Shown here: piece after piece, positions 4,322 to 51,343 of the stretch
Numbering within the stretch: the first letter of the stretch is position 1
How the letters are laid out: the number at the start of each line of letters is the position of its first letter
DNA from: Labilithrix sp.
Lineage (GTDB): Bacteria; Myxococcota_A; Polyangia; Polyangiales; Polyangiaceae
Length of the DNA: 64,000 bases
Assembly: GCA_046351255.1 (NCBI GenBank)
Contig: JAXLYU010000014.1
Span: 123,730 to 187,729, forward strand
Direction: 5' to 3'
Translations under genes and position numbers: made by a program
Notes under the pieces: generated by a model
Seen by the model: only the letters and a program-made list of their open reading frames with translations
Database searches by the model: none
Told to the model about the DNA's origin: nothing

Positions 4322-4477
4322 GCTGCGTACCTGTGCCTACATTGGAACCTTTCACGCGTCCGGCGAAGGAAACACACGTGTTTTATCGGGCGCGGTCGAT
4401 CACCGGTGCATGATCTGGTGGTGCATGGACGCTTCAGCGAAGACGCGCGTCCTCGTTTCTGAAATCGCCGCGCGCGC

Positions 4478-8704: not shown

Positions 8705-8708
8705 GCGC

Positions 8709-24368: not shown

Positions 24369-24458
24369 CTGCGCGCGTTCTACGGCGTCCGCCGCAAAAG
24401 ACGCCTGAAAGCAGCGCTGAGACTTCGCGAGGACACGCGCGGCGCGCGATGATTGCAG

Positions 24459-24485
24459 CACCAACGAATTGTTTCGTTCGTGGTG
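24459..24485. promoter_or_regulatory. Imperfect palindrome CACCAACGAAttgtTTCGTtcgTGGTG in an AT-richer divergent promoter region
   Basis: Nested 5 bp inverted repeats read directly between divergent genes (23856-24368 minus, 24633-25400 plus). Confidence 0.25.
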
Positions 24486-24632
24486 TTGCGCCGAGCGCTC
24501 GCTGGCCGAGGGCCTGGCCAGCTACCCCTCGGACTGTCCCAACCTTCGGACACCAGCATTGCGCAGCAGGCGCGTGATTTCGTGGCGTTAGGGGCCCGCC
24601 TACCTCGGCATACGATGTGCGTGCGCGCGGGC

Positions 24633-27638: not shown

Positions 27639-27660
27639 GGTGGATCCCTATGACCCCACC

Positions 27661-33068: not shown

Positions 33069-33098
33069 GGCTGCGAATTGCTGATACGCTTCGCAGGG

Positions 33099-34385
33099 AT
33101 GGGGCGTCGCTCGGTCGAGATTGCATCTGCGCTTTTTTTCGGCGCCGCGGTGCTCCTTGCCTGCAACTCCATCATCGGCGTCGAGGACGTCCGCCAGAAG
33201 AGCACCACCTACCGCGACGGCGGCAGCTCGGGCAGCAGCGGCGTCGGTGACGACGACGACGACGACGACATCGTGAACCCGATCGACGGCGGGCCCACCG
33301 AGCCATCGCTGCCTGCGCTCGCGCTCGGCGCGTCCCACTCGTGCGCGCGCATGGTCGACGGCACGGTGCGCTGCTGGGGCGAGTCGCGGCTCGGCCAGCT
33401 CGGCGACGGGATCAACCTCGACGGCGGGCCGGAGCCCCAGCCCTCGCTGAAGCCGAAGTCGGTGCCCGGCATCACGGACGCGGTCGCGATCGGCGCAGGC
33501 TCGAACCACACATGCGTCATCCGCACGGGCGGCAAGCTCTCGTGCTGGGGCTTCAATTACAGCGGTCAGCTCGGGACCGGGAACAAGAACACCGCCTCCG
33601 CGCCGGTCGACGTCCCCAACCTCGGCGAGGTCACGGCCGTCGCCGGTGGCGGCACCGCGACCTGCGTGGCGCTCGCGGACAAGACGGCGTCTTGCTGGGG
33701 CGACAATGATTTCGGGCAGCTCGGCGACGGCACCAAGAACGAGTCGTCGAGCCCGGTGAAGGTGAAGGACCTGACCGGCGTGGTCGCGGTCGCGGTCGGC
33801 TCGCTCCACAGCTGCGCCGTCGTCGACGTCGGCGACGTCTACTGCTGGGGCAACAACGACAAGGGCCAGCTCGGCAACGGGAGCACCACGCAGAGCTTGG
33901 TCCCGCAGAAGGTCGGCGGTCTCACCGACGCCGTGCAGGTGGTCGCGGCGGCGAGCTTCTCGTGCGCGCGGCAGAAGAACGGCCGGGTCGCGTGCTGGGG
34001 CAACAACGACGTCGGCCAGCTCGGCAACGGCGTCGCCTCGCCCACGCCGAACCCGTCGCCCATCCTCGTAGCCTCGCTGACCGACGCGGTGTCGCTCGGC
34101 GCGGGGCTGCAACACGCATGCGCCGTTCGCCAGACGGGTGAGGTGGTGTGCTGGGGCGAAGGTGACTGGGGGCAGCTCGGCTCCGGCCGCGACGCGGGCT
34201 CGCCGATGATCGTCACGGTGGCGTCGCTGAAGGACGCGCGCGCGGTGTGGGGCGGCGCGTTCCGCACCTGCGCGGTTCGTGCCGGCGGCAAGGCGCAGTG
34301 CTGGGGCACGAACAACTACGGCGAGCTCGGGGACGGCAGCAAGAACCGCGCGTACCTGCCGGTGGACATCGTCGACTTCCCGTAG
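33099..34385 (+). CDS. RCC1-repeat (ATS1-like) beta-propeller secreted protein
   Basis: Seven or more repeats of hsCalxxDGxvxCWGxNxxGQLGxG (e.g. SHSCARMVDGTVRCWGESRLGQLGDG); poly-Asp linker near the N-terminus. Confidence 0.75.
   Translation: MGRRSVEIASALFFGAAVLLACNSIIGVEDVRQKSTTYRDGGSSGSSGVGDDDDDDDIVNPIDGGPTEPSLPALALGASHSCARMVDGTVRCWGESRLGQLGDGINLDGGPEPQPSLKPKSVPGITDAVAIGAGSNHTCVIRTGGKLSCWGFNYSGQLGTGNKNTASAPVDVPNLGEVTAVAGGGTATCVALADKTASCWGDNDFGQLGDGTKNESSSPVKVKDLTGVVAVAVGSLHSCAVVDVGDVYCWGNNDKGQLGNGSTTQSLVPQKVGGLTDAVQVVAAASFSCARQKNGRVACWGNNDVGQLGNGVASPTPNPSPILVASLTDAVSLGAGLQHACAVRQTGEVVCWGEGDWGQLGSGRDAGSPMIVTVASLKDARAVWGGAFRTCAVRAGGKAQCWGTNNYGELGDGSKNRAYLPVDIVDFP
33249..33269 (+). repeat. 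(GAC)7 trinucleotide repeat encoding DDDDDDD
   Basis: gacgacgacgacgacgacgac read directly inside the RCC1 gene. Confidence 0.6.
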
Positions 34386-34487
34386 CACGCAGATTCTGCG
34401 TCCCGGGGCGGGCGGTAGTGCACGATTTCTGGGCGCAATTCGGCGGCGCGATTAAGCAACAACGAGCGTGTCCGTTCCTTCTGGGGC

Positions 34488-36668: not shown

Positions 36669-38853
36669 CGGCTTGGCCCTCGTCCTCGCCGCGCTCACCA
36701 CGGCGCCGAGCGCGTTCGCGGGCGATGACGTCACGGAGCTCGAGGCGCTCCTCAGCGAGAACGTCGTCTCCGGAGCATCGAAGGAAGCGGAGACGTCATC
36801 CGACGCGCCTGCGATGACGACGACGCTCACCGCAGCCGACATCCGGCGGTACGGGCTCCGCAGCATCGACGAGGCGATCGATTTTCTCGGCATGGGAATG
36901 GTGACGCAGAACCCGCTCCACTCCGTCGAGATGGGCGGACGCGGCGTGCTGATCACGGCCGACTTCGGAAATCACGTGCTGCTCGTGGTCGACGGTCACG
37001 TGATGAACGAGCCGTGGAACATGACCGCTTACTTCGAGCAAGGCGCGGGCATCCCCATGGAGCTCATCGACCACATCGAGCTGATCCTCGGCCCGGGCTC
37101 GGTGCTCTACGGCGGGAGCGCCATGCTCGGCGTGGTGAACGTGGTCACGAAGCGCGCCTCCTCCTTCAAGGGCGCGCACGTGGTGCTCGAGGGCTCGGTC
37201 TCGCCGCAGCAGGGCGGTGGCGGACGCTTCTCGAGCTTCGCGCCGGGCGATCTCGGCGGCGCCGGTCGCGTCGGCGTCGGCGGCGGACACACGACCAGCT
37301 TCCTCGGCAAGCCGCTCGAGTGGATCGGTCAGGTCGAGATCTACGGTCAGAACGGCCCCTCGTTCGAGTGGAGCCCGCAGGTCGTGACCAACGAGGACGG
37401 CACGCCGAAGAACTTCGGGTCGCGGGCCGCTCCGGGCGTGTGGGGCGGTCGCACCACACGCAGCTACGACACGACCGTGCCCGCGCTCTACACGCGTCTC
37501 GACTGGAACGGCTTCGCGCTCATGTTCCGGACCGCGAGCTATGCGCGCGCGACGCCGTACACGAACAACTTCAACCAGCTGCGTGGCGACTTCGACGATC
37601 CGCGCAGCGGCGAGCGGGACAGCTGGCTGTCGGTCGACCTCCAGCACCGCGCCCGCTTCGGTCGCTGGTCCACGCTCGCGCACGGCTACTTCGACAACTA
37701 CCGCTACGGCCAGTCGATGTACGAGGCCGACGGGAGCCAGTGCATCTTCCCGGTGGCTGGCACGTGCTTGACGAAGGTCCGCGGGCGCTCGAGCTGGGGC
37801 GGAGCGGAGGCGCAGGCCACCTACGACTGGCTCGGCGACAGCACGCTGACGACGATGCTCGGCGTCGATGGGCGCGTGCGCTACATCTCCAACTCGACGA
37901 CCGCGATCGCGCTCGACACCGGGCAGGTCGTGGGCATCGTCGGCGACCGGAGCGCGACGGAGCTCGCGTACGCGGTGTATGGCCAGCAGCGCTGGAGCCC
38001 GTTTTCTCGGCTCCACCTGAACGCCGGCGCGCGCTTCGACCACGATCCACGCGGCGGTGATCGGCTCTCCCCACGCGCCGCGGTCTCCTTCACGCCGTGG
38101 ACCGGCGGCACCCTCAAGGCGATCTACTCCGAGGCGTTCCGGGCGCCGTCGTTCTACGAGAAGTACTACGCGGACGGCATCGTCCGTCCCGCGACCTCGC
38201 TCGGACCCGAGGTCGTGCGCAGCGCGGAGGCCAACTTCGAGCAGCGCCTCGGTCGCCACCGGCTCGTCATGGGCGTCTTCCGGAGCTGGTGGTCGGGCAT
38301 GATCGCGCTCCGCACCGTCGACGACAGCACGCTCGAGTACGCCAACCTCTCGCGGATCGACAACTGGGGCTACAACGCCCGCGTCGACGGGACGATGGGC
38401 GCGTTCTCGTACGGGCTCTCGATGACGGGGGCGCACACACGCCGTGACGACGGCGACGGCGATGGCGAGCATCCGCTCCCGGTGGCGCCGCAGGTGTTCG
38501 GCAATGCGCGCGCCGCCTACGACCTTCCCGGGGCGTTGCCAACCGTCGCGATCGCCACCACCTTCGTCGGCTCGCGTCCGGCCGATCGTGCGTTCGACGG
38601 CGGCTTCCCCACGACGCCCTACGCGCCGGCGCAGGCGCGCGTCCGTCTCACGCTCTCGGACGCGGTCCCGGCCGTCCCCGGCCTCTCCTGGCGCCTCGCG
38701 GGCGAGATCGTGACGAAGGGCGAGAGCGCCTACGTCGCGGGTCCCACCCAGAGCGTCGACCCCGCGACCGACAATCCTCGGGCCGCGCAGCTCGCGCCGG
38801 TGAACCGAGCGATGGTGCTCGGGACGCTTCGCTACGACTTCGGCGGGCCATGA
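36658..38853 (+). CDS. TonB-dependent-receptor-like outer-membrane beta-barrel protein
   Basis: GTG start giving signal peptide (M)RRSGLALVLAALTTAPSAFA; plug-domain motifs (LITADFGNHVLLVVDGHVMNEP...IELILGPGSVLYGGSAMLGVVNVVTK); long beta-rich barrel region with aromatic-rich C-terminus. Confidence 0.65.
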   Translation: MRRSGLALVLAALTTAPSAFAGDDVTELEALLSENVVSGASKEAETSSDAPAMTTTLTAADIRRYGLRSIDEAIDFLGMGMVTQNPLHSVEMGGRGVLITADFGNHVLLVVDGHVMNEPWNMTAYFEQGAGIPMELIDHIELILGPGSVLYGGSAMLGVVNVVTKRASSFKGAHVVLEGSVSPQQGGGGRFSSFAPGDLGGAGRVGVGGGHTTSFLGKPLEWIGQVEIYGQNGPSFEWSPQVVTNEDGTPKNFGSRAAPGVWGGRTTRSYDTTVPALYTRLDWNGFALMFRTASYARATPYTNNFNQLRGDFDDPRSGERDSWLSVDLQHRARFGRWSTLAHGYFDNYRYGQSMYEADGSQCIFPVAGTCLTKVRGRSSWGGAEAQATYDWLGDSTLTTMLGVDGRVRYISNSTTAIALDTGQVVGIVGDRSATELAYAVYGQQRWSPFSRLHLNAGARFDHDPRGGDRLSPRAAVSFTPWTGGTLKAIYSEAFRAPSFYEKYYADGIVRPATSLGPEVVRSAEANFEQRLGRHRLVMGVFRSWWSGMIALRTVDDSTLEYANLSRIDNWGYNARVDGTMGAFSYGLSMTGAHTRRDDGDGDGEHPLPVAPQVFGNARAAYDLPGALPTVAIATTFVGSRPADRAFDGGFPTTPYAPAQARVRLTLSDAVPAVPGLSWRLAGEIVTKGESAYVAGPTQSVDPATDNPRAAQLAPVNRAMVLGTLRYDFGGP

Positions 38854-39434
38854 AGCTCACGCGCGCCGAGATCCTGCAGGCGTCGCTGGCGCTGGCGCTG
38901 GGCGGTCTGGTCGGCTGGCCTCGCCGTGGCTTCGCCGCCTCCGCGCCCACCGCCCTCCAGGCGCAGCTCATCGGACGGCTCGCCGCGTTCGATCGGAGCT
39001 TCGCTGCGCGCGCCGGCGCGGTGGCGAAGGTGTCGTGTCATCACAAGACGAAGGACGCAGAGTCTGCGTCCGTCACGAGCGCGGTCGCGAAGGCCACCGC
39101 CAGCCTCGGCGACATCGGCGGCCTGCGCCCGGAGGTCACGGTGTCGGAGCTCGGGGACGCGGCGAAGCTCGCCGCGCGGTGCCCGGCGGAGAGGATCGCG
39201 ATCCTCTACTTCGGCCCCGGGACCGAGACCGACATGGGCGCCATGGCGCAGGCCCTCTCGGGGGTCGACGTGCTCAGCATCGGCGGCTCGGGAGCTCATG
39301 CGGAGCGCGGCGCCGTCGTCGGCTTCGACGTCGAGGAAGGACGCCCGCGCATCGTCGTGAACCTCCGATCGGCGCGGGCACAGAAGGTATCGCTGCGCGC
39401 CGAGCTCCTCAAGCTTGCTCGTGTGATCGAATGA
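38850..39434 (+). CDS. YfiR-like (DUF4154) periplasmic protein
   Basis: Signal peptide; C-terminal VLSIGGSGAHAERGAVVGFDVEEGRPRIVVNLRSARAQKVSLRAELLKLARVI matches the YfiR/DUF4154 pattern (vLtIGesd...GgiI.F......vrFeiNl.aa...gl.iss.LL.lA); ATGA overlap with the upstream stop. Confidence 0.55.
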   Translation: MKLTRAEILQASLALALGGLVGWPRRGFAASAPTALQAQLIGRLAAFDRSFAARAGAVAKVSCHHKTKDAESASVTSAVAKATASLGDIGGLRPEVTVSELGDAAKLAARCPAERIAILYFGPGTETDMGAMAQALSGVDVLSIGGSGAHAERGAVVGFDVEEGRPRIVVNLRSARAQKVSLRAELLKLARVIE

Positions 39435-39483
39435 CTTAACGGCGGCGCCTCTGCCGCCGTTCCACTCCAGAGGACGAGGACGA

Positions 39484-40011
39484 ATGGACAGCATGGAACG
39501 CGAAGTAGTCGTGTCGACGCTCGAGAGCTCGGTCGTCGAGTTCTTTCGAGCGTATGGCATCACGTGCGACAAGACCGAGTCGTGCGCCGCTGCGCCGGGA
39601 GCCGAGATGGGATCCATCGTCGGCTTCCGGGGGAAGGGGCTCCGTGGGGGTCTCGCGTTCGTCGCCCCGACCGAGCTCGTGGCCCGGCTCCTGCCGGTGC
39701 CGAAGCGGCCCGCGCGCGGCGAGCTGCAGCTCCGTGACTGGAGCGCGGAGATCGCGAATCAGCTCGTGGGCCGACTGAAGAACAAGCTCTCGGCTCACTC
39801 GATCGACTTCGAGATCGGCACGCCGGTCTGCTTTCGCGGCTCGAGCATCCGCCTGTCCTTCTTGCCCGAAGCCGACGGCGTGACCCTCGACTTCAACGCC
39901 GGCAGCGATCCCGTGCGCGTCTATCTCGACTGCGCCCTCGCCGCCGATGGCTCCGCAACCTCCGCCCCTGCGCCACGCATCGTCACCGAGGGCGAAGTCG
40001 TCCTCTTCTGA
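39484..40011 (+). CDS. CheX-like chemotaxis phosphatase-fold protein
   Basis: About 175 aa; EMGSIVGFRGKGLRGGLAFVAPTELVARLL resembles the CheX/CheC-fold core; strong GAGGACGAGGA RBS; placed between sensor genes and cheY. Confidence 0.45.
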   Translation: MDSMEREVVVSTLESSVVEFFRAYGITCDKTESCAAAPGAEMGSIVGFRGKGLRGGLAFVAPTELVARLLPVPKRPARGELQLRDWSAEIANQLVGRLKNKLSAHSIDFEIGTPVCFRGSSIRLSFLPEADGVTLDFNAGSDPVRVYLDCALAADGSATSAPAPRIVTEGEVVLF

Positions 40012-40027
40012 GAACCGCGAGTGAACC

Positions 40028-40405
40028 ATGTCCAAGACCATCATCGTAATCGACGACTCCGAGACCATCCGTGACCAGGTGAAGCTGGTCCTCGACGAGG
40101 CTGGCTATCAGGTCATCGAAGCGGAGGACGGCGCGGAAGGCGCGGCGGTCATCCGAGCCAATCCGGGCGCGGCGCTCGCGATCTGTGACGTGAACATGCC
40201 CCGCATGAGCGGGATCGACATGCTCGAGCACCTGAAGTCGCTCGGGCTGCCGAACATCCCGCCCGTCCTCATGCTCACGACCGAGGGCCGGCCCGATCTC
40301 ATCGATCGCGCGCGCTCGGCGGGGGCCAAGGGGTGGATCGTGAAGCCCTTCAAGCCCAACATGCTGCTCGCGACGGTGAAGAAGATCGCGAGCGTAGCGG
40401 CATGA
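40028..40405 (+). CDS. cheY: Single-domain response regulator (CheY-like)
   Basis: IIVIDDSETIR (DD pair), ICDVNMPRMSGID (phospho-Asp), LMLTTEG (Thr), IVKPF (Lys); 125 aa. Confidence 0.85.
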   Translation: MSKTIIVIDDSETIRDQVKLVLDEAGYQVIEAEDGAEGAAVIRANPGAALAICDVNMPRMSGIDMLEHLKSLGLPNIPPVLMLTTEGRPDLIDRARSAGAKGWIVKPFKPNMLLATVKKIASVAA

Positions 40406-42300
40406 ACGCCAGCGCCACCCCGGTGTCCCGGCGGTTTGGTGCGCCGCCACGCCGGGAGTCGATCGCCTTCGAGGCCGTCGTCGCGGCCCCGCGCGTCTTG
40501 CTCGTCGATGACGACGACGCGGCGCGCACGGAGGCGGCCGCCGCTCTCCGGAGCATCGGCTGCACCGTGTTCGAGGCCAGCAACGGTCTCGACGGGCTCA
40601 AGACCTTCGAGACCGTGCGCCCCCACATCGCGTTCCTCGAGGTCATGACGCCGTTCGTCGACGGCTTCTCCACCTGCCGCGCGATGCGTGACCTCCAGGG
40701 TGGAGGTGACGTCGCGATCGTGATGATGACCGACGAGGACGACGTCGAGTCGCTCCGCTTCGGCTACGAGGCCGGCGCGACCGACTTCATCATCAAGCCG
40801 ATCAACGCGATGGTGCTCCAGCACCGCGTCCGCTTCATGAACCGCGCCATCGCGTCCGCGCAGCAGAACCGCGCGCACGAGCGCAAGATCGCGCACCTCG
40901 CGTATCACGACGCGCTCACCGGGCTCCCCAATCGACGCACGCTCTCCGAGTACATGGAGAAGCTCGTCGCGGAGACGCCGCGCAAGGGCGCCGTCTTCGT
41001 GCTCGACCTCGACGGCTTCAAGCGCGTGAACGACACGCTCGGCCACTCCGCAGGCGACGAGCTCATCTGCGAGGTCGGGCGTCGCATGCTCGCCGCGTTC
41101 GCCATCGAGCCGACGAACTGGAGGCGCGGCTCCCGGCCGGACCGCCAGCTCCTCGTGCGCCTTGGCGGTGACGAGTTCGTCTTCGTCGATCCCAACGTCG
41201 ACAGCGCGATCGAGGCGTCGATGCTCGCGGAGCGCTTGCTCTCCGCGGTCGGGACGGTCTTCGAGCTCCACGGGCACGAGGTGCTCGTCACGGCGAGCAT
41301 CGGGATCGCGCTCGTCGGCGAGGTCGAGGGCGGCGTGGACGAGCTCCTGCAGAGCGCCGACACCGCGATGTACGACGCGAAGGCGCACGACCGCAACAAC
41401 GCGCGCTTCTACTCGCGGAAGCTCTTCGAGCAGGCGCGGAAGAAGGTCGACACGGAGAGCGCCCTTCGCCAGGCGATCGCGGGCAACCAGCTCGTCCTCT
41501 ACTACCAGCCGAAGGTCGCGCTCGCGACCGACGAGGTGGTCGGCGTGGAGGCGCTCCTTCGCTGGAACCATCCGACGCGCGGCATCGTCTTCCCCGGCGA
41601 GTTCATCGGGACGGCGGAGGAGACCGGGCTCATCGTGCCCATCGGCATCTGGGCGCTCGGCGAGGTGTGTCGTCAGGCCAAGCGCTGGAGCGAGCGCGAG
41701 GATCTCCGCGGCATCCGCATCGCGGTCAACGTCTCGGCGCGCCAGTTCCGTAGCCCGACCTTCCTCGCGCAGGTCGAGCACGAGATCAGGAGCTCGGGCG
41801 TCGATCCGCGGCTCATCGAGATGGAGATCACCGAGGGCATCCTCCTCGAGGACACGAAGGGCGTTCGCGTCATCCTCGACGGCCTCAAGGCGCTCGGGCT
41901 GCACATCGCGCTCGACGACTTCGGCACGGGCTACTCCGCGCTCGGCTACCTCCGCCAGTTCCCGTTCGACTGCCTCAAGATCGATCGCTCGTTCATCACC
42001 GACCTCCTCGTCGACGAAGGCTGCGCCGCGATCACGAGTGCGGTGGTGGCCCTCGCGAATCGGCTCCGCCTGAACGTGGTGGCCGAGGGCGTGGAAGAGG
42101 CGGGACAGGCGGAGCAGCTCCGGCAGCTCGGCTGCGACGAGGCTCAGGGCTATCTCTACAGCCCGGCGCTTCCGGCCGATCAGCTCGCGGCTTGGGCCTC
42201 GGGCCGCGTACGCAAGCTCGACGCGGGCGAAGGCCTCCGTCGCGTGTTCTTCCCCCGCGGAAGCGCGGTCCCCTCTCTGCGCGTTCACTCGCTGCTCTGA
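40402..42300 (+). CDS. REC-GGDEF-EAL protein (diguanylate cyclase/phosphodiesterase) with Glu at the receiver phospho-acceptor position
   Basis: Receiver: LLVDDDD, FLEVMTPFVDG (Glu where phospho-Asp is expected), MMTDE, IIKP; GGDEF: RLGGDEFVFV; EAL: EALLRW, DDFGTGYS, EGVE; ATGA overlap with cheY stop. Confidence 0.85.
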   Translation: MNASATPVSRRFGAPPRRESIAFEAVVAAPRVLLVDDDDAARTEAAAALRSIGCTVFEASNGLDGLKTFETVRPHIAFLEVMTPFVDGFSTCRAMRDLQGGGDVAIVMMTDEDDVESLRFGYEAGATDFIIKPINAMVLQHRVRFMNRAIASAQQNRAHERKIAHLAYHDALTGLPNRRTLSEYMEKLVAETPRKGAVFVLDLDGFKRVNDTLGHSAGDELICEVGRRMLAAFAIEPTNWRRGSRPDRQLLVRLGGDEFVFVDPNVDSAIEASMLAERLLSAVGTVFELHGHEVLVTASIGIALVGEVEGGVDELLQSADTAMYDAKAHDRNNARFYSRKLFEQARKKVDTESALRQAIAGNQLVLYYQPKVALATDEVVGVEALLRWNHPTRGIVFPGEFIGTAEETGLIVPIGIWALGEVCRQAKRWSEREDLRGIRIAVNVSARQFRSPTFLAQVEHEIRSSGVDPRLIEMEITEGILLEDTKGVRVILDGLKALGLHIALDDFGTGYSALGYLRQFPFDCLKIDRSFITDLLVDEGCAAITSAVVALANRLRLNVVAEGVEEAGQAEQLRQLGCDEAQGYLYSPALPADQLAAWASGRVRKLDAGEGLRRVFFPRGSAVPSLRVHSLL

Positions 42301-42341
42301 GCGACCGGCGGGCAGGGCCCGGACCTTGCTAAGGGCCGGGT

Positions 42342-43175
42342 ATGGGGCTCCTCTCGCTCGAAGCGATCGTCGCGGACGTGATGACGCACGACGTCTTCAC
42401 GCTCTCGCCGTCCCACAGCCTTCCGCTCGCGGACACGATGATGACGCTCCGCCACATCCGGCACATCCCGGTGGTGGATGACGCGCATCGGCTCGTCGGC
42501 CTCGTCACCCACCGCGATCTGATGAAGGCCCAGCTGAGCGCCCTCTCCCCGCTCTCGAAGGACGAGCGGAGCACCCTGGAGCTGGCGATCCCGATCTCGA
42601 AGATCATGCAGAAGGAGGTGTGGACGATCGCACCGTCTGCGCGAGCTGCGCAGGCGGCGCAACTTCTGCGTGACCATCGGTTCGGATGCCTGCCCGTGAC
42701 GGAGCACGGACGGCTCGTCGGGATCGTCTCGGAGTCCGACCTCCTCCAGCTGCTCGCGCAGCCGGGGCCCTCGGTGCCGGCGCCGCAGCACTGGCCGATC
42801 AAGCAGTTCATGACCGGCGCGCCCGTGACGATCACGCTCGACACGTCCCTCGCGGAGGCGCGGCTCGCGTTCGAGCAGCACCACATCCATCATCTGCCCG
42901 TCCTCTCGGAGGGGCGCGCCATCGGCATCGTCCACGAGCGCGATATCCGCGTCGCGGAGGCGATCTTCGGCGCGAGCCAGAACACGCGCGCGGTGCACGT
43001 CGCGCAGCTCCTCGGGGACATTCACTCCGACCACGCTCGGCCGGACGAGGCGCTCGCCGTCGTCCTCGAGCGGATGATTCGCGACCGCGTCGACGCGGTG
43101 GTGGTGGTGGAGAACGACGTGCTCTGCGGGATCTTCACTCTGGTCGACGCGTGCCGCGTGCTCACCGTGCGCTGA
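42342..43175 (+). CDS. CBS-domain tandem (two CBS pairs) protein
   Basis: Four CBS-like units (VMTHDVFTLSPSHSL...HIPVVDD, VWTIAPSA...CLPVTEHGRLVGIVSESDL, FMTGAPVTI...HLPVLSEGRAIGIVHERDI, ...VVVVENDVLCGIFTLVD). Confidence 0.8.
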   Translation: MGLLSLEAIVADVMTHDVFTLSPSHSLPLADTMMTLRHIRHIPVVDDAHRLVGLVTHRDLMKAQLSALSPLSKDERSTLELAIPISKIMQKEVWTIAPSARAAQAAQLLRDHRFGCLPVTEHGRLVGIVSESDLLQLLAQPGPSVPAPQHWPIKQFMTGAPVTITLDTSLAEARLAFEQHHIHHLPVLSEGRAIGIVHERDIRVAEAIFGASQNTRAVHVAQLLGDIHSDHARPDEALAVVLERMIRDRVDAVVVVENDVLCGIFTLVDACRVLTVR

Positions 43176-43188
43176 TGTTCCACGCCGC

Positions 43189-43262
43189 GAGACAGGTGTT
43201 CCACGCGACGGAACACCTCTCGCGCGCCGGCCTGCATTTCCCGGGGAAATGAGGGGTTTTGG
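43189..43262 (+). terminator. Probable tandem-hairpin intrinsic terminator ending the 34.5-43.2 kb operon
   Basis: GAGACAGGTGTTCC-acgcgac-GGAACACCTCTCTC (13/14 bp stem), then CATTTCCC-g-GGGAAATG followed by GGGGTTTTGG; begins 14 nt after the CBS gene stop. Confidence 0.4.
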
Positions 43263-43332
43263 CGGTGGCGAAGCGCTTGCTCTTTCTGGCGGAGACGCGA
43301 AGGTCGCGCGTCTCTTTCGGAAGGAATCGAAG

Positions 43333-44874
43333 ATGAAGATGGGTGTCGTTGGTCTCGTGAGCAGCGTGGCGGCGGTGATGATCGCGGCGACGGTCGGCTG
43401 TGTGACGCAGAGCACGAAGGACGGAGAGAGCAGCTCGGGGGGAACGAACGACGCGGGAGGTGGCGACGGCGGCAGCGGTGTCGAGGATGGGAGCGCGACC
43501 GGTGACGGCGGCGCGACCGAGCAGGGGCCCACGCGCTACGCCTGCCCGATCGACAAGCCGCAGAAGGTGTACGGCTACGCGCTGAACGCGAAGTCGAGCA
43601 TCGACGCGCCCGAGACCTGGACGCCCGACAACGTCTATCTCGTCTTCGGGCCGCTCCACATCCAGAAGCCGCTGACGATCCAGGCCGGCACCGTCGTGTG
43701 CTTCGACTACGGCCCGCCCGGCGCGAACGGCTCCGCCGAGCCCCCGCCGGGCGAGATGCTCCTCGAGGAGGGCGGCGCCATCGACGCGCAAGGTACGCCG
43801 ACCTCGCACGTCGTCTTCACTGCGAAGTCGGACGGGAGGGGTCCCGAGCAGCTCTACTGGAAGGGCCTCACCGCGTTCTCCGGCTGGACCGGCTTCAAGC
43901 TCGTTTACTCGGACATCTACAACGGCGGTCTCTCCGCTGGTGGCGCGCCGCTCGAGGTCATGGCCGACAACGGGCTCGCGCCGCTCGTCGACTGGCAGAA
44001 CGTGAAGGTCTACTCGTCGCAGCGCGTCGGCATCAAGATGCTCGCGGAGAAGGGCTTCACCCCGGAGACGAAGCTCACCTTCGTGAACTTCGCGGACGAG
44101 TACGTCACCAAGTACGCGAGCGACGCGAACTACGAGGACTACTACGACCACGGCTATCCCGTGCTTCGTCTGAGCCACTACGGCGCCTCGTCGGTGAAGC
44201 CGGGCATGTTCGACATCGGCGATCCGGCGAAGGTCCCGCCCGCGACGCGCTACGTGCAGCTCGATCACGCCGAAGGCGCGATCGTCTCGAAGGACTACCA
44301 CCTGCACAAGCTCCCGCCGGGCCTCGCCTGGCGCAACGTGCAGAACGAGCTGCTCGACGCGACGCTCACCATCGATCCAGGCACCACGATCGCCGTCGCC
44401 AACGGCGGCACCTGGTTCATCGGCGACAAGGGCGGCTGCAGCGGCGCGGGCTCGCTCGTCGCGGTCGGCACTGCGGCGGAGCCGATCACGTTCACGAACG
44501 ACATCCCGTGGCAGGGGCCGGCGGAGAAGTCGCCGACGAAGAGCCCCGGCATCACCATCAACTCGTGCGCGTTCGCGAGCACGAAGCTCGACTACGTCGT
44601 GTTCGACGGGCTCGGCGCGCAGTCGGCGGTCTCCGTGCACTGCAAGGGCGAGAGCCCGGCGTTCGCGGGCGAGGTGAACTTCCTCTACTCGGGCGACGGC
44701 GTCGACCGCGAGGGCCCGCCGATCACGCACTCCACCTTCAAGAGCTCGGCGGGGTACGGCATCCTCCGCGTGGACGGCTCGCACATCACGACCGACTACA
44801 CGAAGGCCGAATTCGGCAACACGTTCGAAGGGTTCACGGACCCGGCGAAGCCCGCGCAGCCGACCTGCAACTGA
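43333..44874 (+). CDS. Hypothetical secreted lipoprotein (beta-helix-like)
   Basis: MKMGVVGLVSSVAAVMIAATVGCVTQ lipobox; Gly/Asp/Ser linker; 513 aa beta-rich body; AAGGAA RBS. Confidence 0.55.
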   Translation: MKMGVVGLVSSVAAVMIAATVGCVTQSTKDGESSSGGTNDAGGGDGGSGVEDGSATGDGGATEQGPTRYACPIDKPQKVYGYALNAKSSIDAPETWTPDNVYLVFGPLHIQKPLTIQAGTVVCFDYGPPGANGSAEPPPGEMLLEEGGAIDAQGTPTSHVVFTAKSDGRGPEQLYWKGLTAFSGWTGFKLVYSDIYNGGLSAGGAPLEVMADNGLAPLVDWQNVKVYSSQRVGIKMLAEKGFTPETKLTFVNFADEYVTKYASDANYEDYYDHGYPVLRLSHYGASSVKPGMFDIGDPAKVPPATRYVQLDHAEGAIVSKDYHLHKLPPGLAWRNVQNELLDATLTIDPGTTIAVANGGTWFIGDKGGCSGAGSLVAVGTAAEPITFTNDIPWQGPAEKSPTKSPGITINSCAFASTKLDYVVFDGLGAQSAVSVHCKGESPAFAGEVNFLYSGDGVDREGPPITHSTFKSSAGYGILRVDGSHITTDYTKAEFGNTFEGFTDPAKPAQPTCN

Positions 44875-44898
44875 CGCTCCGCGACGTGATGTCGCGCA

Positions 44899-46338
44899 TT
44901 GTGCGGTACGCTGCCATCGATGGCGGATGTCCGCGCAGCCTCCCCCGGGATCCCCGAGACGGGTCAGATCGTCTCGGGGAAATTCCGGATCGAAGAGCCG
45001 CTCGGCCGCGGCGGTCTCGGCGTGGTCGTGGCGGCGACGCACCTTCAGCTCGGACAGCGCGTCGCGATCAAGTTCCTCGACGCGCGCGTGCTCGCGGCGG
45101 TCGACGGGGTCGCGCGATTCCTTCGTGAGGCGCGCTCCGCCGCCACCATCGAGAGCGAGCACTGCGTTCGCATCCTCGATTTCGGCACCGCGGAGGACGG
45201 CGCGCCCTACATCGTCATGGAGTGCCTGCGTGGTCACGACCTCGCGACCGAGCTTCGCGAGCACGGTGCGCTCGAGGTCGAGCGCGCGGTCGACTACGTC
45301 CTCCAGGCCTGCGACGCGGTCGCGGAGGCCCATGCGCACGGGATCATCCATCGTGACCTCAAGCCCGCCAACCTGTTCCTCGCCCGCCGCGAGGCTCGCG
45401 GCTCATTGAAGGAAGGCGCCCTGCTCGTGAAGGTGCTCGATTTCGGCGTCGCGAAGGTCCTCGACGAGGGTGACGGTCGCATGGGCCTCACGGGCGAGTC
45501 CGCGGTGATCGGCACGAGCTACTACATGGCGCCCGAGCAGGTCCGCGACTCGAGCCGCGTCGACGCTCGCACCGACGTCTGGGCGCTCGGCGTGATCCTC
45601 TTCGAGCTCCTCACGGGGGAGCGTCCCTTCGACGGGCCGACCGCCTCCGCCGTCACCGCCGCGATCGTCGCGGATCCGCCACGGCTCCTCGACGACGTTC
45701 GCCCCGACGTGCCGCCTGCCATCCGCGCCGTCATCGCGAAGTGCCTCGCGAAGGATCCGGCGCGCCGCTGGCCCGACGTGCGCGCCTTCGCGCAAGCGCT
45801 CGAAGACGCGCTCGGCGGCTCCGCGCGCCTCCGCCTCGTGCGACCCTGGTCCGAGACCGAGCGCGGCTCGGCGGGGCGGCTCGTGGTCTCCACTGCACCC
45901 GTGTCGAGCCCCGAGGCCCTCGCCGCGACGGAGCTCGCGTCGAGCGAGTCGGGCCAGCAGGTGAGCGAGCCGGTGAGCGAGCGCGCGGACGCGAGCCCGC
46001 GACGGTCGCGCGCGCCGATCGCGATCGCGGCCGTCCTCGGCGTCGGGCTCGCCGTCGGATGGGCGGTGCGCGCGCTTGCGCCCTCGACACCGCCGGAGCC
46101 GGTGCGCGCGACGGTCGATGCGGCCGCGAGCACGGTGGCGAGCGTGCTGCCGAGCGTGACCGCCTCCGTCGAGCCGCCGCCTCCGGTCACGGTGGCGATC
46201 ACGTCGGCCGCGCCGCCGGCGAGCTCCGCGCGCGGTATGGTGCACGCGCCGCGCATCGGCACCAAGCCAATCGCGCCGGCGCCACCGCGCGCCACCGATC
46301 CGAAGGGCATCGATGATCCGAACCTGACGAACCGCTGA
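44899..46338 (+). CDS. Membrane-anchored Ser/Thr protein kinase (module B)
   Basis: LGRGGLGVVV (Gly loop), VAIKFL, HRDLKPANLFL, DFGVAK, YMAPE; C-terminal TM IAIAAVLGVGLAVGWAV plus Pro-rich tail; an alternative Met start lies 21 nt downstream. Confidence 0.85.
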   Translation: MCGTLPSMADVRAASPGIPETGQIVSGKFRIEEPLGRGGLGVVVAATHLQLGQRVAIKFLDARVLAAVDGVARFLREARSAATIESEHCVRILDFGTAEDGAPYIVMECLRGHDLATELREHGALEVERAVDYVLQACDAVAEAHAHGIIHRDLKPANLFLARREARGSLKEGALLVKVLDFGVAKVLDEGDGRMGLTGESAVIGTSYYMAPEQVRDSSRVDARTDVWALGVILFELLTGERPFDGPTASAVTAAIVADPPRLLDDVRPDVPPAIRAVIAKCLAKDPARRWPDVRAFAQALEDALGGSARLRLVRPWSETERGSAGRLVVSTAPVSSPEALAATELASSESGQQVSEPVSERADASPRRSRAPIAIAAVLGVGLAVGWAVRALAPSTPPEPVRATVDAAASTVASVLPSVTASVEPPPPVTVAITSAAPPASSARGMVHAPRIGTKPIAPAPPRATDPKGIDDPNLTNR

Positions 46339-47270
46339 TGAACCCCCGATTTTTACCTGTTCTCGTGACGTTCGCGTCTGCGCTCGTCGCCGTGAGCGCG
46401 CCGGCGCTCGCGGACGACGCTGCCACGCGCGCCGCGGAGGTGCTCTTCACCGAGGGGCGCGACCTCATGCGCGCCGAGAAGTACGACGAGGCCTGTCCGA
46501 AGCTCGCGCGGAGCCACGAGCTCGCGCCTGCGGTGGGCACGCTCCTGAACCTCGGCCTCTGCTACGAGAAGAGCGGTCGGACCGCGAGCGCGTGGCTTCG
46601 CTACAAGGAGGCGGCCTCCATCGCGGCGCAGAAGCACGACGCGCGCGAGACCTACGCGCGTGACCGCGTCTCCTCCCTCGAGATCGAGCTCGCACGTCTC
46701 ACGGTCGACGTCGCGCCGGACGTGGCCAAGGCCAGCCCGCACGTGGTGCTCGACGGCGCGGACCTGCCCAACGCGTCGTGGGGCGTGGCGATCCCGATCG
46801 ATCCGGGCGATCACGTCGTCGTCGCGATCGCGAGCGAGGACCGGACGGTCACGAAGCGCACGCACATCGACGCGAAGACGAAGGTGACGCTGACGATCGA
46901 CGCGTTCGAGACGGCCGGACGCCCCGGTCCTGGCCCCGGTCCGACGGCGCCCGTCACGCGTCCGCTGGTCCTCGCCGAGCCTCCGCCCGCGCCGCACGAG
47001 CGCTCCTCCGTCCAGCGTCCGCTCTCCTACGCCGTGCTCGGGCTCGGCGGCGCGGCGCTCCTGGCCGGTGGCGTCGTCGCGACGATCGCGAAGGTCCGCT
47101 ACGACGGCGTGGAAGACGAGTGCGGCGGCAATCGCTGCACGCCCTCGGCGCGAGACACGCGAAACGGCGCCTTCGATCAGGCCGACGTCGCGAGCGTGCT
47201 GGGGATCTCCGGCCTCGTCGTGCTCGCGGCGGGCAGCGTGCTCTGGCTCACCTCGCGCGGGGAGCGATGA
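46338..47270 (+). CDS. Secreted two-TM 'PEGA-like' protein (module B)
   Basis: Signal [25 protein letters not shown]; TPR-like Cys-bearing helical region ([10 protein letters not shown]...[10 protein letters not shown]); beta-sandwich (HVVLDGADL...[15 protein letters not shown]); PGPGPGP linker; TM; CGGNRC loop; TM; TGATG overlap upstream and ATGA downstream. Confidence 0.55.
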
Positions 47271-48589
47271 GCACCGAGGCGATGGGCAGCGCGCGCCGCG
47301 CGCTCGCCGTGGACGTCCTCCGTCTCGTCGTGATGGACGGCCCCGACGCGGGCGAGCGCTTCGAGTCGACGCAGGGGCGGCTCGTCGTGGGCACGCATGC
47401 CTCGGCGGACGTGGTGCTCTCGGACCCCGCCGTCTCGCGCTTCCATTTCGAGCTCGTCACCTCCTCGACCGGCATCCTCCTTCGCGACCTCGGCAGCACG
47501 AACGGTACGTGCGTCGACTCGGTCCCCGTGATCGCTGCGCCGCTCCGGCCAGGCGCGGTCCTCGAGGTCGGCCGCACGCGCCTTCGCCTCGAGGCCGCGG
47601 CCGAGAAGGCGACCGTCGAGCTGCCCGCGCGTCAGTCGTTCGGCGTCGCGGTCGGCCGCTCCGTCGCCATGGCTCGCACCTTCGCGCTCCTCGAGCGCGC
47701 GGCCGCCTCGGACGCGACGGTGCTCCTCGAGGGCGAGACGGGCACCGGAAAAGAAGCGGCGGCGGAGTCCGTCCACATCGAGAGCGCGCGGCGCGATCAG
47801 CCGTTCATCGTCGTCGACTGCGCGTCGATCCCGAAGGACCTGCTCGAGTCCGAGCTCTTCGGTCACGAGCGCGGCGCGTTCACGGGCGCGGTCGCCGCGC
47901 GCGCGGGCGCCTTCGAGGCCGCGAACGGCGGCACCCTCTTCCTCGACGAGATCGGAGAGCTCTCGTCCGAGCTCCAGCCGAAGCTCCTGCGCGTGCTCGA
48001 GCGCCGCGAGGTGAAGCGCGTGGGCGCGAATCGATACGAGAAGGTCGACGTGCGGCTCATCGCGGCCACGCACCGCAACCTCCGCGAGGAGGTGAACAAC
48101 GGTCGCTTCCGCGCCGATCTCTACTACCGCCTCGCGGTCGTGCAGGTGCGGTTGCCGCCGCTCCGCGAGCGTCTCGACGACCTCGCCCTCCTCGTGGAGA
48201 GGCTCCTCGCGCAGCTCGGCGCGAGCACACGCCCCGAGGCGATGATGGTCCGCACGCCCGAGTTCTACGCCGAGCTCGCGCGCCATTCCTGGCCCGGCAA
48301 CGTGCGCGAGCTACGGAACTACGTCGAGCGTTGCCTCGCGATGCGCGAGACGATGCCGCTCGATCCGGTGGGCGAAGCGGGGACCGAGCGCGATGCCACG
48401 TTCGATCCGCGCTCCCTCGCGGGCCTGCCGCTCAAGGAGGCCCGCGATCGCTGGGTCGACCTCTTCGAGCGCGCCTACGTGGCCGAGCTCCTCAAGGCGC
48501 ACGACGACAACGTGGCCGCCGCGGCGCGTGCCGCGGGCGTCGCGCGCAACCACTTCTACCGCCTGCTCTGGCGGCACGGCTTTCGCTGA
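47267..48589 (+). CDS. FHA-domain sigma54-dependent transcriptional activator (module B), intact GAFTGA
   Basis: FHA ([26 protein letters not shown]...STNGT); GETGTGKE; [15 protein letters not shown]; RADLYYRL; C-terminal [19 protein letters not shown]. Confidence 0.85.
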
Positions 48590-48609
48590 GGGACGGGGGC
48601 TCGGGCGCT

Positions 48610-49977
48610 TCAGGGCGCGCGCACGTCGACGACGCTGGCGCTCACGCCGCCGATGGTGCACTCGAGCGGCGCCGGCGAGCGACCGTCGAGGCCGAGGCGA
48701 AAGAGCTTCGTGCCACCAGAGCCGGTGACGCAGATGAACTCGCCGGACGCAGGGAGATGTCGGATGCGCGCGCAGCCGAAGCGCGAGGCGATCTCCGTGC
48801 CGAGGTTCGGGTAGGGGCTCGACATGGTCGCGCCGTTGGCCCAGTCGAGGCGATCGATGCGCGACGACGACGCGAGCTCGACCTGCGCGAGAAGGCCGTC
48901 GTCGCGAGCGCCGAAGGGGGCGATGGAGAGGCCGTCAGCCGGAGCGTCGAGCGTGCGCATGCCGAGGGTGCCCCCGTCGAGCGCAAGGATGCGAAGCTCG
49001 GCGCCTCCGTCGCGCGTCGACGCGACCGCCAGCGGGCCCTGCGCGGTCCGCGCGACGACGGCCCCGAGGCCCTTGCCGAGACCGGTGGCGAGCGTGAGCG
49101 TCTCGTTCGTGACCGTCGACCAGCGCGCGATCGATGTCCCGGTGTCGCACGCGCTCGGCGCGCGCCGGTAGGCCACGAGTTCGTCGTCGAGCAGCACGCC
49201 GTCGCACGCCGAGGGGAGCGGTCGATCCTTGGACGGGGCGACGGCGAGCGGCCGGTCCGCGTCGAGGCGTACGAAGGAGAGCACCCAGCCGAATGCCTCG
49301 GGGACCCCGAGCGCGACGAGCGCGGTCTTGCCCGAGGGGCTGATCGAGAGCGGGGCGCACCCGACGCAGATACGCGCCGGGTTCCGGCAGTCGCGATCGG
49401 TGACGTACGTGCTGAAGCTCGGACCGACCGGGACCGCCACGAGCCACGTCTCGCCGGGGCGCACGAGCGCGCCAGGATCGTGCTCGGCGAGGCGACCGCG
49501 GCAGACGTCGTTCACGCAGGCCTGGTCGGTCGTGCACGACGCGCCGGGAGCGTCGGCGGCGGTGCACTTCGTCCGGCAGCGCCCGTCCTCCATGCACCTC
49601 GTCCCCTCGGGACAGCCCGACGAGGCGATGGCGCAGTCCCCGGCCGTATCACTGACGCACCCGTTTCCAGCGTTCGTGTGGAGGCAGCGCTCGCCGGCAT
49701 GGCACTCCGCGTCGGAGAGGCAGCGCACGGCACATGTTCCGAAGAGGCAGGAGCGCGCGTCGGAGCAGGGCGCGGTCGAGCTACAGCTTCCCGACACGAC
49801 CGGACCATCCGCCCCGCCTCCGCCGGTCTCGCCCAGGCGTCCCTCGTCGCCACCGGCGTCGGTCGCCTCGAGGCCTGGGCGCTCGAAGCCGAGAATGGCG
49901 CTACATCCGCCCGCGAGCGCCCCAGCCCCCCCGAGCGCGAGCGCGAGCAGGATGGCCAGAGCTCGCCGTCGCCGCAT
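48610..49977 (-). CDS. Secreted Cys-rich (EGF/furin-like) protein with C-terminal beta-propeller-like domain
   Basis: Signal MRRRRALAILLALALGGAGALAGGCSA; clusters of Cys (SCSSTAPCSDARSCLFGTCAVRCLSDAECHAGERCL...); about 300 aa beta-rich C-terminus. Confidence 0.5.
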   Translation of the reverse strand: MRRRRALAILLALALGGAGALAGGCSAILGFERPGLEATDAGGDEGRLGETGGGGADGPVVSGSCSSTAPCSDARSCLFGTCAVRCLSDAECHAGERCLHTNAGNGCVSDTAGDCAIASSGCPEGTRCMEDGRCRTKCTAADAPGASCTTDQACVNDVCRGRLAEHDPGALVRPGETWLVAVPVGPSFSTYVTDRDCRNPARICVGCAPLSISPSGKTALVALGVPEAFGWVLSFVRLDADRPLAVAPSKDRPLPSACDGVLLDDELVAYRRAPSACDTGTSIARWSTVTNETLTLATGLGKGLGAVVARTAQGPLAVASTRDGGAELRILALDGGTLGMRTLDAPADGLSIAPFGARDDGLLAQVELASSSRIDRLDWANGATMSSPYPNLGTEIASRFGCARIRHLPASGEFICVTGSGGTKLFRLGLDGRSPAPLECTIGGVSASVVDVRAP

Positions 49978-50143
49978 GTGACCGAACCTTAGCCGATCTC
50001 GTGCCACGGGTTTGTCCCGACGAAGGGAGTCGATGCAACACCTGCGCGACGCGCAGCGCTTGCGTCTGGCAGGGCCGTCCCCGCGCGCGCGAGCGGCACG
50101 GGTGAGCATGGCCGCGCGGCGCGAGCCTTGCTCGACGCCGTTC

Positions 50144-51343
50144 ATGCATCGATCTTTGCCGCTCCACGGGGAGAGCCCGGGCGTGGCGACCCCGCCGCGC
50201 TGGCCCCTCGCGCGAAAGGGCTTCCGTCCCTTCTTCCTCCTCGGCGCGCTCGGAGCATCGGCCCTGATCCCGATGTGGCTGCTCGTGCTCGGCGGCGTCG
50301 TCCGTCCGAGCGCCTACGTGGATCCGGTCACGTGGCACGCGCACGAGATGCTCTTCGGCTTCGCGACCGCGGTCATCGCGGGCTTCCTGCTCACGGCCGT
50401 GGGCAACTGGACGGGCCGCGAGACGATCATCGGGCCGAAGCTCCTCGCCCTCTCTGGCGTCTGGCTCGCCGGGCGCGTCGCGATGATGGCTTCCGTGCCA
50501 GGGGCGGGGATCCATGCGCGCGGGATCATCGCGGCGGTCGACCTCGTGTTCATGCCGCTCCTCGCGGTGACCATCGGCCGGCCTCTCCTCGCGACGCGGA
50601 ACCGCCGGAACTTCGTCATGCTGGGCGTGCTCGCGGCGCTCTTCGCGTGCAACGTCGTGATGCACCTCGAGGCGCTCGGTCTCGCGGCGGCGGGCGCGGG
50701 CCGTCATGCGGCGCTCGTCGCGCTCGACGTCGTGATCTTCCTCTGCCTCGTGATCGGAGGCCGTGTCATCCCGATGTTCACGCGGAACGGCACCGGTCGC
50801 GGCGGGCTCGCCTCGCCGCCCTGGCTCGACGTCGCGGTCGTCGTCTCGATGGTCGCGCTCGTCCTGGCCGACGCGATCCTCCCGGCCTCGACCCTCGCCT
50901 TCGCGCTCGCGGGCGTGGTCGGCCTCGTCTCGCTGGCCCGTACCGCGTTCTGGGGCACGCGTCACACGCTCCGCCATCCGCTCCTGTGGATCCTCCACGC
51001 CGGCGCGCTGTGGATCTCGGCGGGCATGCTGCTCCGCGCGGCGCCGCTCGCCGGAGTCTCCATCTCGGGCTCGTCTGCCGCGCACGCGCTGACGGCGGGC
51101 GCCATCGGCGCGCTCACGATCGGCATGATGGCCCGCGTCGCGCTCGGGCACACCGGCCGCCCGCTCACCCCACCGCGCGCGATGACCGTCGCGTTCGTCT
51201 GCGTCACGCTCGCCGCGCTCGTCCGCGTGGCGGGCGTCTCGCTCGTCGTGAGCGGAGCGCTCTGGGCCACGGCGTTCGCGATCTACGTCGTCGCGTATGT
51301 CCCCGTCCTCTTTGGCGCCCGCGTCGACGGGAAGTCGGGCTGA
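50144..51343 (+). CDS. nnrS: NnrS family haem-copper membrane protein (NO-response)
   Basis: FRPFFLLGAL...HAHEMLFGFATAVIAGFLLTAVGNWTG is the conserved NnrS N-terminal signature; about 12 TM helices; start codon uncertain (an in-frame GTG downstream is also possible). Confidence 0.75.
   Translation: MHRSLPLHGESPGVATPPRWPLARKGFRPFFLLGALGASALIPMWLLVLGGVVRPSAYVDPVTWHAHEMLFGFATAVIAGFLLTAVGNWTGRETIIGPKLLALSGVWLAGRVAMMASVPGAGIHARGIIAAVDLVFMPLLAVTIGRPLLATRNRRNFVMLGVLAALFACNVVMHLEALGLAAAGAGRHAALVALDVVIFLCLVIGGRVIPMFTRNGTGRGGLASPPWLDVAVVVSMVALVLADAILPASTLAFALAGVVGLVSLARTAFWGTRHTLRHPLLWILHAGALWISAGMLLRAAPLAGVSISGSSAAHALTAGAIGALTIGMMARVALGHTGRPLTPPRAMTVAFVCVTLAALVRVAGVSLVVSGALWATAFAIYVVAYVPVLFGARVDGKSG

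Follow-up and report, generated by a model that had tools for sequence, protein, structure and literature searches.

Introduction

Sigma54 activators with an FHA domain have been thought to be under the control of kinases since 2005, when Jelsbak, Givskov and Kaiser (PNAS 102:3010, as cited in PMC4320627) reportedly described such enhancer-binding proteins (EBPs) in Myxococcus xanthus and Ser/Thr kinases, in place of histidine kinases, were proposed to feed sigma54 activators. In Mycobacterium tuberculosis, the membrane Hanks kinase PknH is found beside the FHA transcription factor EmbR, which is controlled via phosphothreonine recognition. A distinct accessory protein in the periplasm, TagR(QST), assists the activation of another membrane kinase, PpkA. 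To our knowledge, very few links from kinase to transcription have been worked out in myxobacteria, and we know of no FHA-sigma54 system for which the cognate kinase, the input module and the target promoter are all defined. For the threonine-phosphorylation pathway of type VI secretion, PpkA/Fha1, an FHA protein has been described that reads phosphothreonine (PMC3953482). Both the Ser/Thr kinase and the sigma54-activator families are expanded in Myxococcus and Sorangium (PMC8538405). Here we analyse module B, a locus of Labilithrix sp. (Polyangiaceae) in which the genes of a Hanks-type Ser/Thr kinase, a membrane partner protein (MP) and an FHA-sigma54 EBP adjoin one another. It lies in a 64,000-nt stretch of contig JAXLYU010000014.1, referred to as the window; coordinates are those of the whole window, unless they are given for one of the related loci from other genomes or metagenomes, which are labelled L001 to L093.

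Module B gathers within 5.4 kb a candidate sensor partner, a kinase, an activator and a candidate promoter/enhancer placed before a plausible output gene. It is an unusually complete and testable example of an FHA-sigma54 kinase pathway: with all four parts in so short a segment, the idea can be tested directly.

Results

Module B and its candidate promoter

Since the G+C content of the window is about 70%, raw lists of open reading frames (ORFs) are noisy, and true reading frames were chosen by the GC content of third codon positions. On the + strand we recovered the order kinase, MP, EBP that the first-pass annotation of this DNA had proposed, at the coordinates listed in Table 1. The stop codon of the kinase B gene overlaps the start codon of the MP B gene by 1 nt (cgcTGATGaac, read from the sequence) and the MP B stop codon overlaps the EBP B start codon by 4 nt (cgATGAgc, also read from the sequence), so that the two overlaps of that annotation stand as well, as TGATG and ATGA junctions. 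The start of kinase B is ambiguous, as either a TTG or an ATG codon could be used. The three genes are translationally coupled and probably co-transcribed. A domain search over all ORFs of the window returned no kinase, MP or FHA-EBP beyond the two of each that lie in module B and in a distant homologue of the trio, module A.

Table 1. Coordinates of the features of module B, module A and their surroundings.
Feature	Position	Strand	Remarks
Kinase B, Hanks-type Ser/Thr kinase	44920-46338 (alternative TTG start 44899)	+	Pfam Pkinase, E 7e-48
MP B, 310 aa	46338-47270	+	Pfam: sub-threshold TPR matches only
EBP B	47267-48589	+	Pfam FHA (E 8e-14), Sigma54_activat (E 3e-69), AAA lid
Lipoprotein, right-handed beta-helix (pectin-lyase-like fold)	43333-44874	+	First gene of the putative operon
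Inverted repeat, putative EBP site	43183-43229	+	20-nt arms, 85% complementary, 7 nt apart
Sigma54-type -24/-12 promoter-like element	43266-43281	+	TGGCGAAGCGCTTGCT; GG-N10-GC, about 52 nt before the ATG of the lipoprotein gene
Module A, distant homologue of the trio	25405-28926	-	Order EBP, kinase, MP
EBP A, degenerate	27661-28926	-	First gene of module A
Kinase A	26139-27638	-	Second gene of module A
MP A	25405-26142 or 25405-26205	-	Third gene of module A
Gene X, Cys-rich, lipoprotein-like	48610-49977	-	Convergent; codon-position GC favours the - strand

The unit does not stop at the trio. The kinase start is preceded, at a distance of 24-45 nt, by the end of a lipoprotein gene, and the whole appears to form a four-gene operon with the order lipoprotein-kinase-MP-EBP. 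Near-identical fragments were found only in an activated-sludge metagenome (L087) and in a Logan assembly (L084). The latter keeps all four genes in this order with the same overlaps, and its syntenic lipoprotein gene is 85% identical to that of the window.

Two elements were identified upstream of the lipoprotein gene, a large inverted repeat and a -24/-12 promoter-like sequence (Table 1). The core of the repeat, GTGTTCC-N7-GGAACAC, is perfect at 43196-43216, where it is the sole zero-mismatch match in the window, and another copy of TGTTCC, conserved in part, begins at 43177. L084 keeps the palindrome with one mismatch between diverged flanks; further downstream, TGGC and TTGCT are as far apart there as in the window (TGGC-N7-TTGCT), and the bases in between differ. 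In the alignment of the two intergenic regions, the palindrome, the TGGC...TTGCT element and the ribosome-binding region are thus kept amid diverged sequence, and synteny ends upstream of the palindrome, where the window has a CBS-domain gene and L084 a divergent kinase gene. The exact string TGGC-N7-TTGCW occurs three times in the window against 0.34 expected. No sigma70-like site was found in 42900-50300. We therefore regard 43266-43281 and the palindrome as the candidate promoter and upstream activator site of EBP B.

Further matches were recorded in the window and in other loci. The two other exact TGGC-N7-TTGCW matches, at 108-123 (+) and 10245-10260 (-), apparently lie inside coding regions. 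A sigma54-like match upstream of gene X (49991-50006, - strand) was not counted as a promoter, being about 14 nt from the likely ATG. Matches with one or two mismatches occur in the EBP-linked loci L001 (2443-2458), L091 (14138-14153, - strand) and L054 (4527-4542), either upstream of the first gene of the kinase-MP operon or just downstream of the MP gene; they are suggestive, though within the background rate. The EBP gene of L088 is preceded by a palindrome that resembles the one of the window, GTGTTGC-N7-GCAACAC, with no -24/-12 element after it, which is suggestive only.

The lipoprotein family is small (33 matches), and its genes were found with FHA-EBP and kinase genes in other contexts. 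A JGI contig carries the order lipoprotein-GerE-GerE-FHA-EBP-kinase; its 439-aa EBP appears to be P0200, which is 61% identical to EBP B. In two metagenome-assembled genomes of Nannocystaceae, an FHA-EBP gene is convergent with a kinase gene and the lipoprotein gene is divergent from both; these loci show TGGCAAGCCGCTTGAA 35 nt upstream of the lipoprotein ATG and GTGTCGACAC repeats further upstream. The strongest argument that the EBP targets the lipoprotein gene is this independent co-occurrence of lipoprotein, FHA-EBP and kinase. The lipoprotein is thus likely to be the regulated output, and the window operon would then be autoregulated.

Directly upstream of module B, the + strand carries a dense signalling cluster (34419-43175) that encodes a HAMP-Hpt-HATPase kinase, a TonB-dependent receptor, CheX, a single-domain response regulator, a receiver-GGDEF-EAL protein and a protein with four CBS domains. 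Pfam scans of about 30 gene products from the neighbourhood (10-60 kb of the window) gave no type VI secretion domain, and no PP2C phosphatase was found among the window proteins scanned.

Sequence motifs of the activator EBP B

EBP B is composed of an FHA domain, an AAA+ domain with the GAFTGA motif and a Fis-type helix-turn-helix (HTH) domain. Its Walker A (GETGTGKE) and Walker B (LFLDEIGE) motifs are present, as are the GAFTGA loop that contacts sigma54, the R-finger (FRADLYYRL) and sensor II (GNVRELRN). The residues of the C-terminal HTH are invariant in an alignment of the EBP B clade (A5); Pfam HTH_8 was not reported for EBP B itself and is recorded for its relatives. EBP B carries all the motifs that sigma54 activation requires.

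The FHA domain also matches the Pfam profile Yop-YscD_cpl (E 8.5e-21), in addition to the FHA profile. The closest solved FHA domains by sequence are those of GarA/OdhI (PDB 2kfu, 6i2p, 2kb3), with E-values of about 1e-11 to 3e-12, and the phosphate-contact residues S57, R58, H60 and N79-G80-T81 are present.

The membrane partner and the C-terminal peptide of the kinase

No Pfam or NCBIfam model matches the MP family. Its layout, obtained from a 53-member alignment and an AlphaFold2 model (pLDDT 86.7; about 97 for the domain core), starts with a cleavable signal peptide, a periplasmic domain of 2-3 TPR repeats with two invariant cysteines and a small beta-sandwich. A disordered Pro-rich linker follows, then a hairpin made of a transmembrane (TM) helix, a polar loop with an invariant Cys-x4-6-Cys and a second TM helix. 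The predicted structure contains the helix-turn-helix repeats of a TPR. The best conserved and best folded part of the protein is the periplasmic TPR domain with the beta-sandwich. The first-pass annotation had labelled the protein PEGA-like; this label was not borne out, since the window MP has no match to Pfam PEGA (PF08308) at E<=1, and only 7 of 53 relatives match it marginally (best E 0.001). CarboxypepD_reg matches were found in 9 of the 53. The likeness to PEGA appears to lie solely at the level of the beta-sandwich fold.

The family is very large. A profile search returned 16,264 representatives of 50%-identity clusters at E<=1e-30, and a survey seeded with a 5-sequence alignment confirmed 532 copies in species-representative genomes. 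We kept 80 of these, nearly every one of which carries the label Polyangiaceae, Polyangiales, Myxococcales or Deltaproteobacteria. The best matches to MP B in the genome collection are at most 52% identical. The MP also evolves faster than its operon neighbours: MP B shares 65-67% identity with its L084 counterpart (3441-4364), while the same pair of loci shows 85% for the lipoprotein, 85% for the N-terminal half of the EBP and 69% for the kinase overall, with the kinase differences nearly all in the tail. This fast divergence is consistent with the MP being a diversifying sensor or interface.

Kinase B displays the motifs of its class (Gly-rich loop GRGGLGVV, VAIKFL, HRDLKPAN, DFGVAK, YMAPE). 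Its kinase domain is followed by a juxtamembrane linker, one TM helix and a Pro/Ala-rich periplasmic tail of about 80 aa that ends in KGIDDPNLTNR. This architecture is common to 51 of the 54 MP-linked kinases: after the kinase domain and a linker come a single TM helix and a tail rich in Pro, Ala, Ser and Thr, whose median length is 108 aa. Nearly all these tails end in D-[LIP]-[YFL]-[GS]-D-R-[KR]-COOH, or in a looser form with any residue at the fourth position (D-[LIP]-[YFL]-x-D-R-[KR]), as exemplified by the L063 and L083 kinases (NLYDDRK). Arg is found at position -2 from the C-terminus in 41 of the 54. The motif is likewise present in kinases encoded divergently beside an MP gene (DPLSERN) and, where no kinase adjoins the MP, in kinases encoded a few kb away (DPLDGRR); unrelated kinases of these MP loci do not have it. 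Between the window and L084, the kinase tail has diverged almost wholly and the terminal KG[IL]xDPxL has been kept. A conserved peptide at the end of a disordered periplasmic tail, together with a neighbouring gene for a periplasmic TPR protein, suggests that the peptide may dock on the TPR domain of the MP.

We tentatively propose that MPs of about 320-360 aa would be the missing extracellular sensor halves of Ser/Thr kinases that act as "split" receptors, a class that would be very large in Polyangiales (about 16,000 50%-identity clusters). Kinase and MP would be tethered through peptide-TPR contacts, and a module-B-like subset of the pairs would be hard-wired to an FHA-EBP. This generalization is a possibility that we would hold to be rather doubtful at present.

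A kinase-MP core to which an FHA-EBP may be added

We examined the surroundings of 82 MP loci. A kinase gene lies directly upstream on the same strand in 54 and is adjacent and divergent in 6; no kinase is adjacent in 16, and the remaining 6 have too little upstream sequence. A kinase therefore adjoins the MP in 60 of the 76 loci with enough upstream sequence. The kinase-MP pair is the conserved core and forms a cognate unit, very common in Polyangiales.

The FHA-EBP is rare in the unbiased genome survey, to which L054, L007 and L064 belong, and recurs among closer relatives and in searches begun from the EBP side. In L054 the order is EBP-kinase-MP, as in module A, while L001 and L091 show a kinase-MP pair convergent with an FHA-EBP. 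L089/L090 have MP-EBP with no kinase, L088 has EBP-RCC1-kinase, and in L093 the EBP is convergent with a kinase. A complete FHA-EBP is encoded 6 kb from the MP in L007; L064 gave an AAA+ match only, without an FHA domain. A metagenome scan seeded with the EBP returned mostly non-FHA EBPs, through generic AAA+ motifs, and was informative for L091 and L093 only. The FHA-EBP is thus a facultative output, added to the kinase-MP core at either end or convergently.

Gene X, which belongs to no Pfam family, is another gene that recurs beside kinase-MP pairs. A homologue of it (E 2.5e-41) comes immediately after the MP gene in L085 (2170-3462) and L086. In L085, whose MP is 50% identical to MP B, this homologue replaces the EBP and overlaps the MP gene by 4 nt. 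L087 keeps MP-EBP followed by a convergent gene X, at the same position as in the window, and NnrS. Weaker matches to gene X follow the MPs of L070, L015 and L017. On this pattern of neighbourhood, gene X is possibly part of the system.

Proposed pathway and its alternatives

We favour, with modest confidence, the reading that the four-gene operon is driven by its own sigma54 promoter and palindromic enhancer and constitutes a self-activating signalling loop. The periplasmic TPR/beta-sandwich part of the MP would sense a periplasmic cue and act as a sensor or co-receptor for a kinase whose own periplasmic part is merely a disordered tail. The two proteins would be coupled through their TM helices and perhaps also through docking of the peptide on the TPR. 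The kinase, once activated, would autophosphorylate on a threonine of its activation segment or its juxtamembrane segment. This phosphothreonine would be read by the FHA domain of the EBP, or the EBP would itself be phosphorylated, and assembly of the AAA+ domain would be switched. The EBP would then bind the palindrome and open the sigma54 promoter. The output would be more of the polysaccharide-lyase-like lipoprotein and more of the signalling proteins themselves. The nature of the lipoprotein hints, as a speculation, at a cell-surface or matrix polysaccharide.

Several points weigh against this self-activating loop. The canonical Arg of the FHA G-R motif is absent from EBP B and replaced by Thr43, and G42-T43-H44 is invariant in all nine sequences of alignment A5; with Thr in this place, phosphothreonine binding by the FHA domain is not assured. 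The C-terminus of kinase B, DDPNLTNR, departs from the family motif. Covariation between the kinase Arg(-2) and MP alignment columns is not significant after about 300 tests, the best uncorrected p being 0.006, with p of about 0.012 for the TPR positions S59 and D63. The topology of the MP and the location of its Cys-x4-Cys loop are predictions only. The -24/-12 match has two departures from TGGCAC-N5-TTGCW, and conservation of the element rests on one informative relative, L084. Finally, an adjacent FHA-EBP was found in just 1 of the 80 MP loci of the genome survey (L054), so the EBP is no general partner of the kinase-MP pair.

The scarcity of EBPs beside kinase-MP pairs and the missing Arg of the FHA domain would also be expected if the pair and the EBP shared an operon and served separate pathways. 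The pair would then act on other substrates, for instance in envelope or polysaccharide homeostasis, and some other kinase would control the EBP, or the role of the EBP's FHA domain would be limited to oligomerisation. Cross-talk among the expanded Ser/Thr kinase families of myxobacteria would fit such a scheme (PMC8538405). However, the MP and EBP genes are coupled at the translational level, the three families co-occur repeatedly in different arrangements, and lipoprotein, FHA-EBP and kinase are found together even where the MP is missing. We thus consider separate pathways unlikely, although they are the alternative to be taken most seriously.

The self-activating loop also assumes that the MP is on the sensing side. 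The protein might instead serve as a substrate or as a membrane anchor, or it might regulate negatively by sequestering the kinase or the EBP at the membrane. Conserved Cys and Ser/Thr residues occur in the loop between its TM helices, which is predicted to be cytoplasmic, and the MP-EBP pair of L089 exists without a kinase, both of which would suit such a role. Against it, the part of the MP that is best conserved and best folded is periplasmic, and so is the conserved C-terminal peptide of its partner kinase. A non-sensor role therefore seems improbable to us.

Module A is an old relative of module B

Module A contains the same three families on the opposite strand in a different gene order, EBP-kinase-MP, as had been noted at first pass and as domain search and homology now confirm. 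Its kinase-MP junction is ATGA, like the MP-EBP junction of module B. The first-pass annotation had gone further and read the two modules as one duplicated and rearranged unit. The homology of all three pairs and their non-chance adjacency hold; the closeness of the two copies does not. Kinases A and B are 31% identical, a value that we regard as ordinary for two bacterial Hanks kinases. The MPs share 25% identity locally (E 4e-5) and 23% over the family alignment, and the EBPs 36-39%. Each component of module B has many relatives in other genomes that are closer than its module A counterpart. More than 8,000 database proteins match EBP B at E<=1e-30, and more than 100 FHA-EBPs, including Hyalangium and Labilithrix proteins, are 60-67% identical to it. 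In a rough neighbour-joining tree, EBP B falls in this tight clade and EBP A elsewhere, nearest to the EBPs of L091 and L054. MP A ranks 91st of 93 among the relatives of MP B, with 23% identity.

A recent duplication of mutually closest paralogues would account for the recurrence of three detectably homologous pairs within 17 kb, with a coupled kinase-MP junction in both copies. The low identities, the wealth of foreign FHA-EBPs closer to EBP B, the placement of the two EBPs in different subclades and the rank of MP A make it very unlikely, as far as comparison with other genomes can show. Since the A-B identities are low and closer relatives are found elsewhere, modules A and B are rather, as far as their sequences tell, old and divergent members of one design. 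The permuted order is better seen as attachment of the EBP at one or the other end of a conserved kinase-MP core, which accounts for the two arrangements. The trio itself is not confined to the window, as other genomes also combine the three families, in several orders.

Chance adjacency of abundant families in a large myxobacterial genome is scarcely credible, and the first-pass annotation was right to discount it: the families are indeed greatly expanded in myxobacteria (PMC8538405) and an FHA-EBP lies within 8 kb of an MP in only a few percent of cases, near random by a rough estimate, but the genes of module B overlap by 1 and 4 nt, their order is kept in L084 and L087, and both kinase-MP pairs of the window carry an EBP, compared to about 1-2% in the survey.

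The activators of the two modules differ in integrity, in agreement with the first reading of this DNA that EBP B is intact and EBP A is not. EBP A has lost in frame 19 aa that include GAFTGA and a further 10 aa in the pre-sensor-I region, and the Asp of its Walker B motif is replaced by Ser. These defects are unique among the 20 sequences compared. Its FHA domain, Walker A and sensor II are intact, and it still matches HTH_8 (E 6e-7). EBP A may be a repressor or may regulate independently of sigma54. Module A is an old, divergent relative of the module B design in which the activator is devoid of the sigma54-contact loop.

An RCC1-repeat beta-propeller gene (33078-34385, +) is located between modules A and B, and in L088 an RCC1 protein (7405-8937) likewise stands between the FHA-EBP and the kinase. 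Module A faces a convergent gene for a trypsin-like serine protease (24453-25400, +); in L001, the kinase-MP operon opens with a gene (2517-4196) for a weak trypsin-domain protein.

Discussion

The concept of a kinase-fed FHA-sigma54 activator was anticipated earlier. This analysis adds a candidate promoter/enhancer, a gene that is likely to be the output, and a rule that pairs kinases with the members of a very large family so far without annotation. This rule, an adjacent gene plus a C-terminal motif, would annotate thousands of "hypothetical" membrane proteins. If the split-receptor reading is true, module B would be a self-contained pathway of three proteins leading from the periplasm to a sigma54 promoter, a Ser/Thr counterpart of the two-component system.

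The FHA-EBPs of M. xanthus resemble EBP B in their FHA domain, their AAA+ domain with GAFTGA and their HTH, and the same logic of Ser/Thr kinase input has been proposed for them. Module B differs from them in that the activator is coupled to a specific kinase and to a dedicated MP, that a candidate target promoter/enhancer lies in the same operon and that the FHA domain has Thr for Arg. The PknH-EmbR pair shares with module B the adjacency of a kinase gene and a gene for an FHA-containing transcription factor. However, EmbR is a SARP/OmpR-type sigma70 activator whereas EBP B is an AAA+ sigma54 activator, and PknH has its own folded extracellular sensor and no separate partner, whereas kinase B has the MP. 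PpkA/TagR/Fha1 comes close to module B in its parts, with a membrane Hanks kinase, a separate periplasmic accessory and an FHA reader, but its output is the assembly of a secretion apparatus and not transcription, and TagR is unrelated to the TPR/beta-sandwich MP. As for GarA/OdhI, the phosphate-binding residues S-R-x-H and N-G-T are kept in EBP B, while the Arg of the GarA G-R-H motif corresponds to Thr43, and GarA regulates enzymes rather than transcription. In none of these systems does one operon encode a TPR membrane partner together with a Hanks kinase and an AAA+ sigma54 activator.

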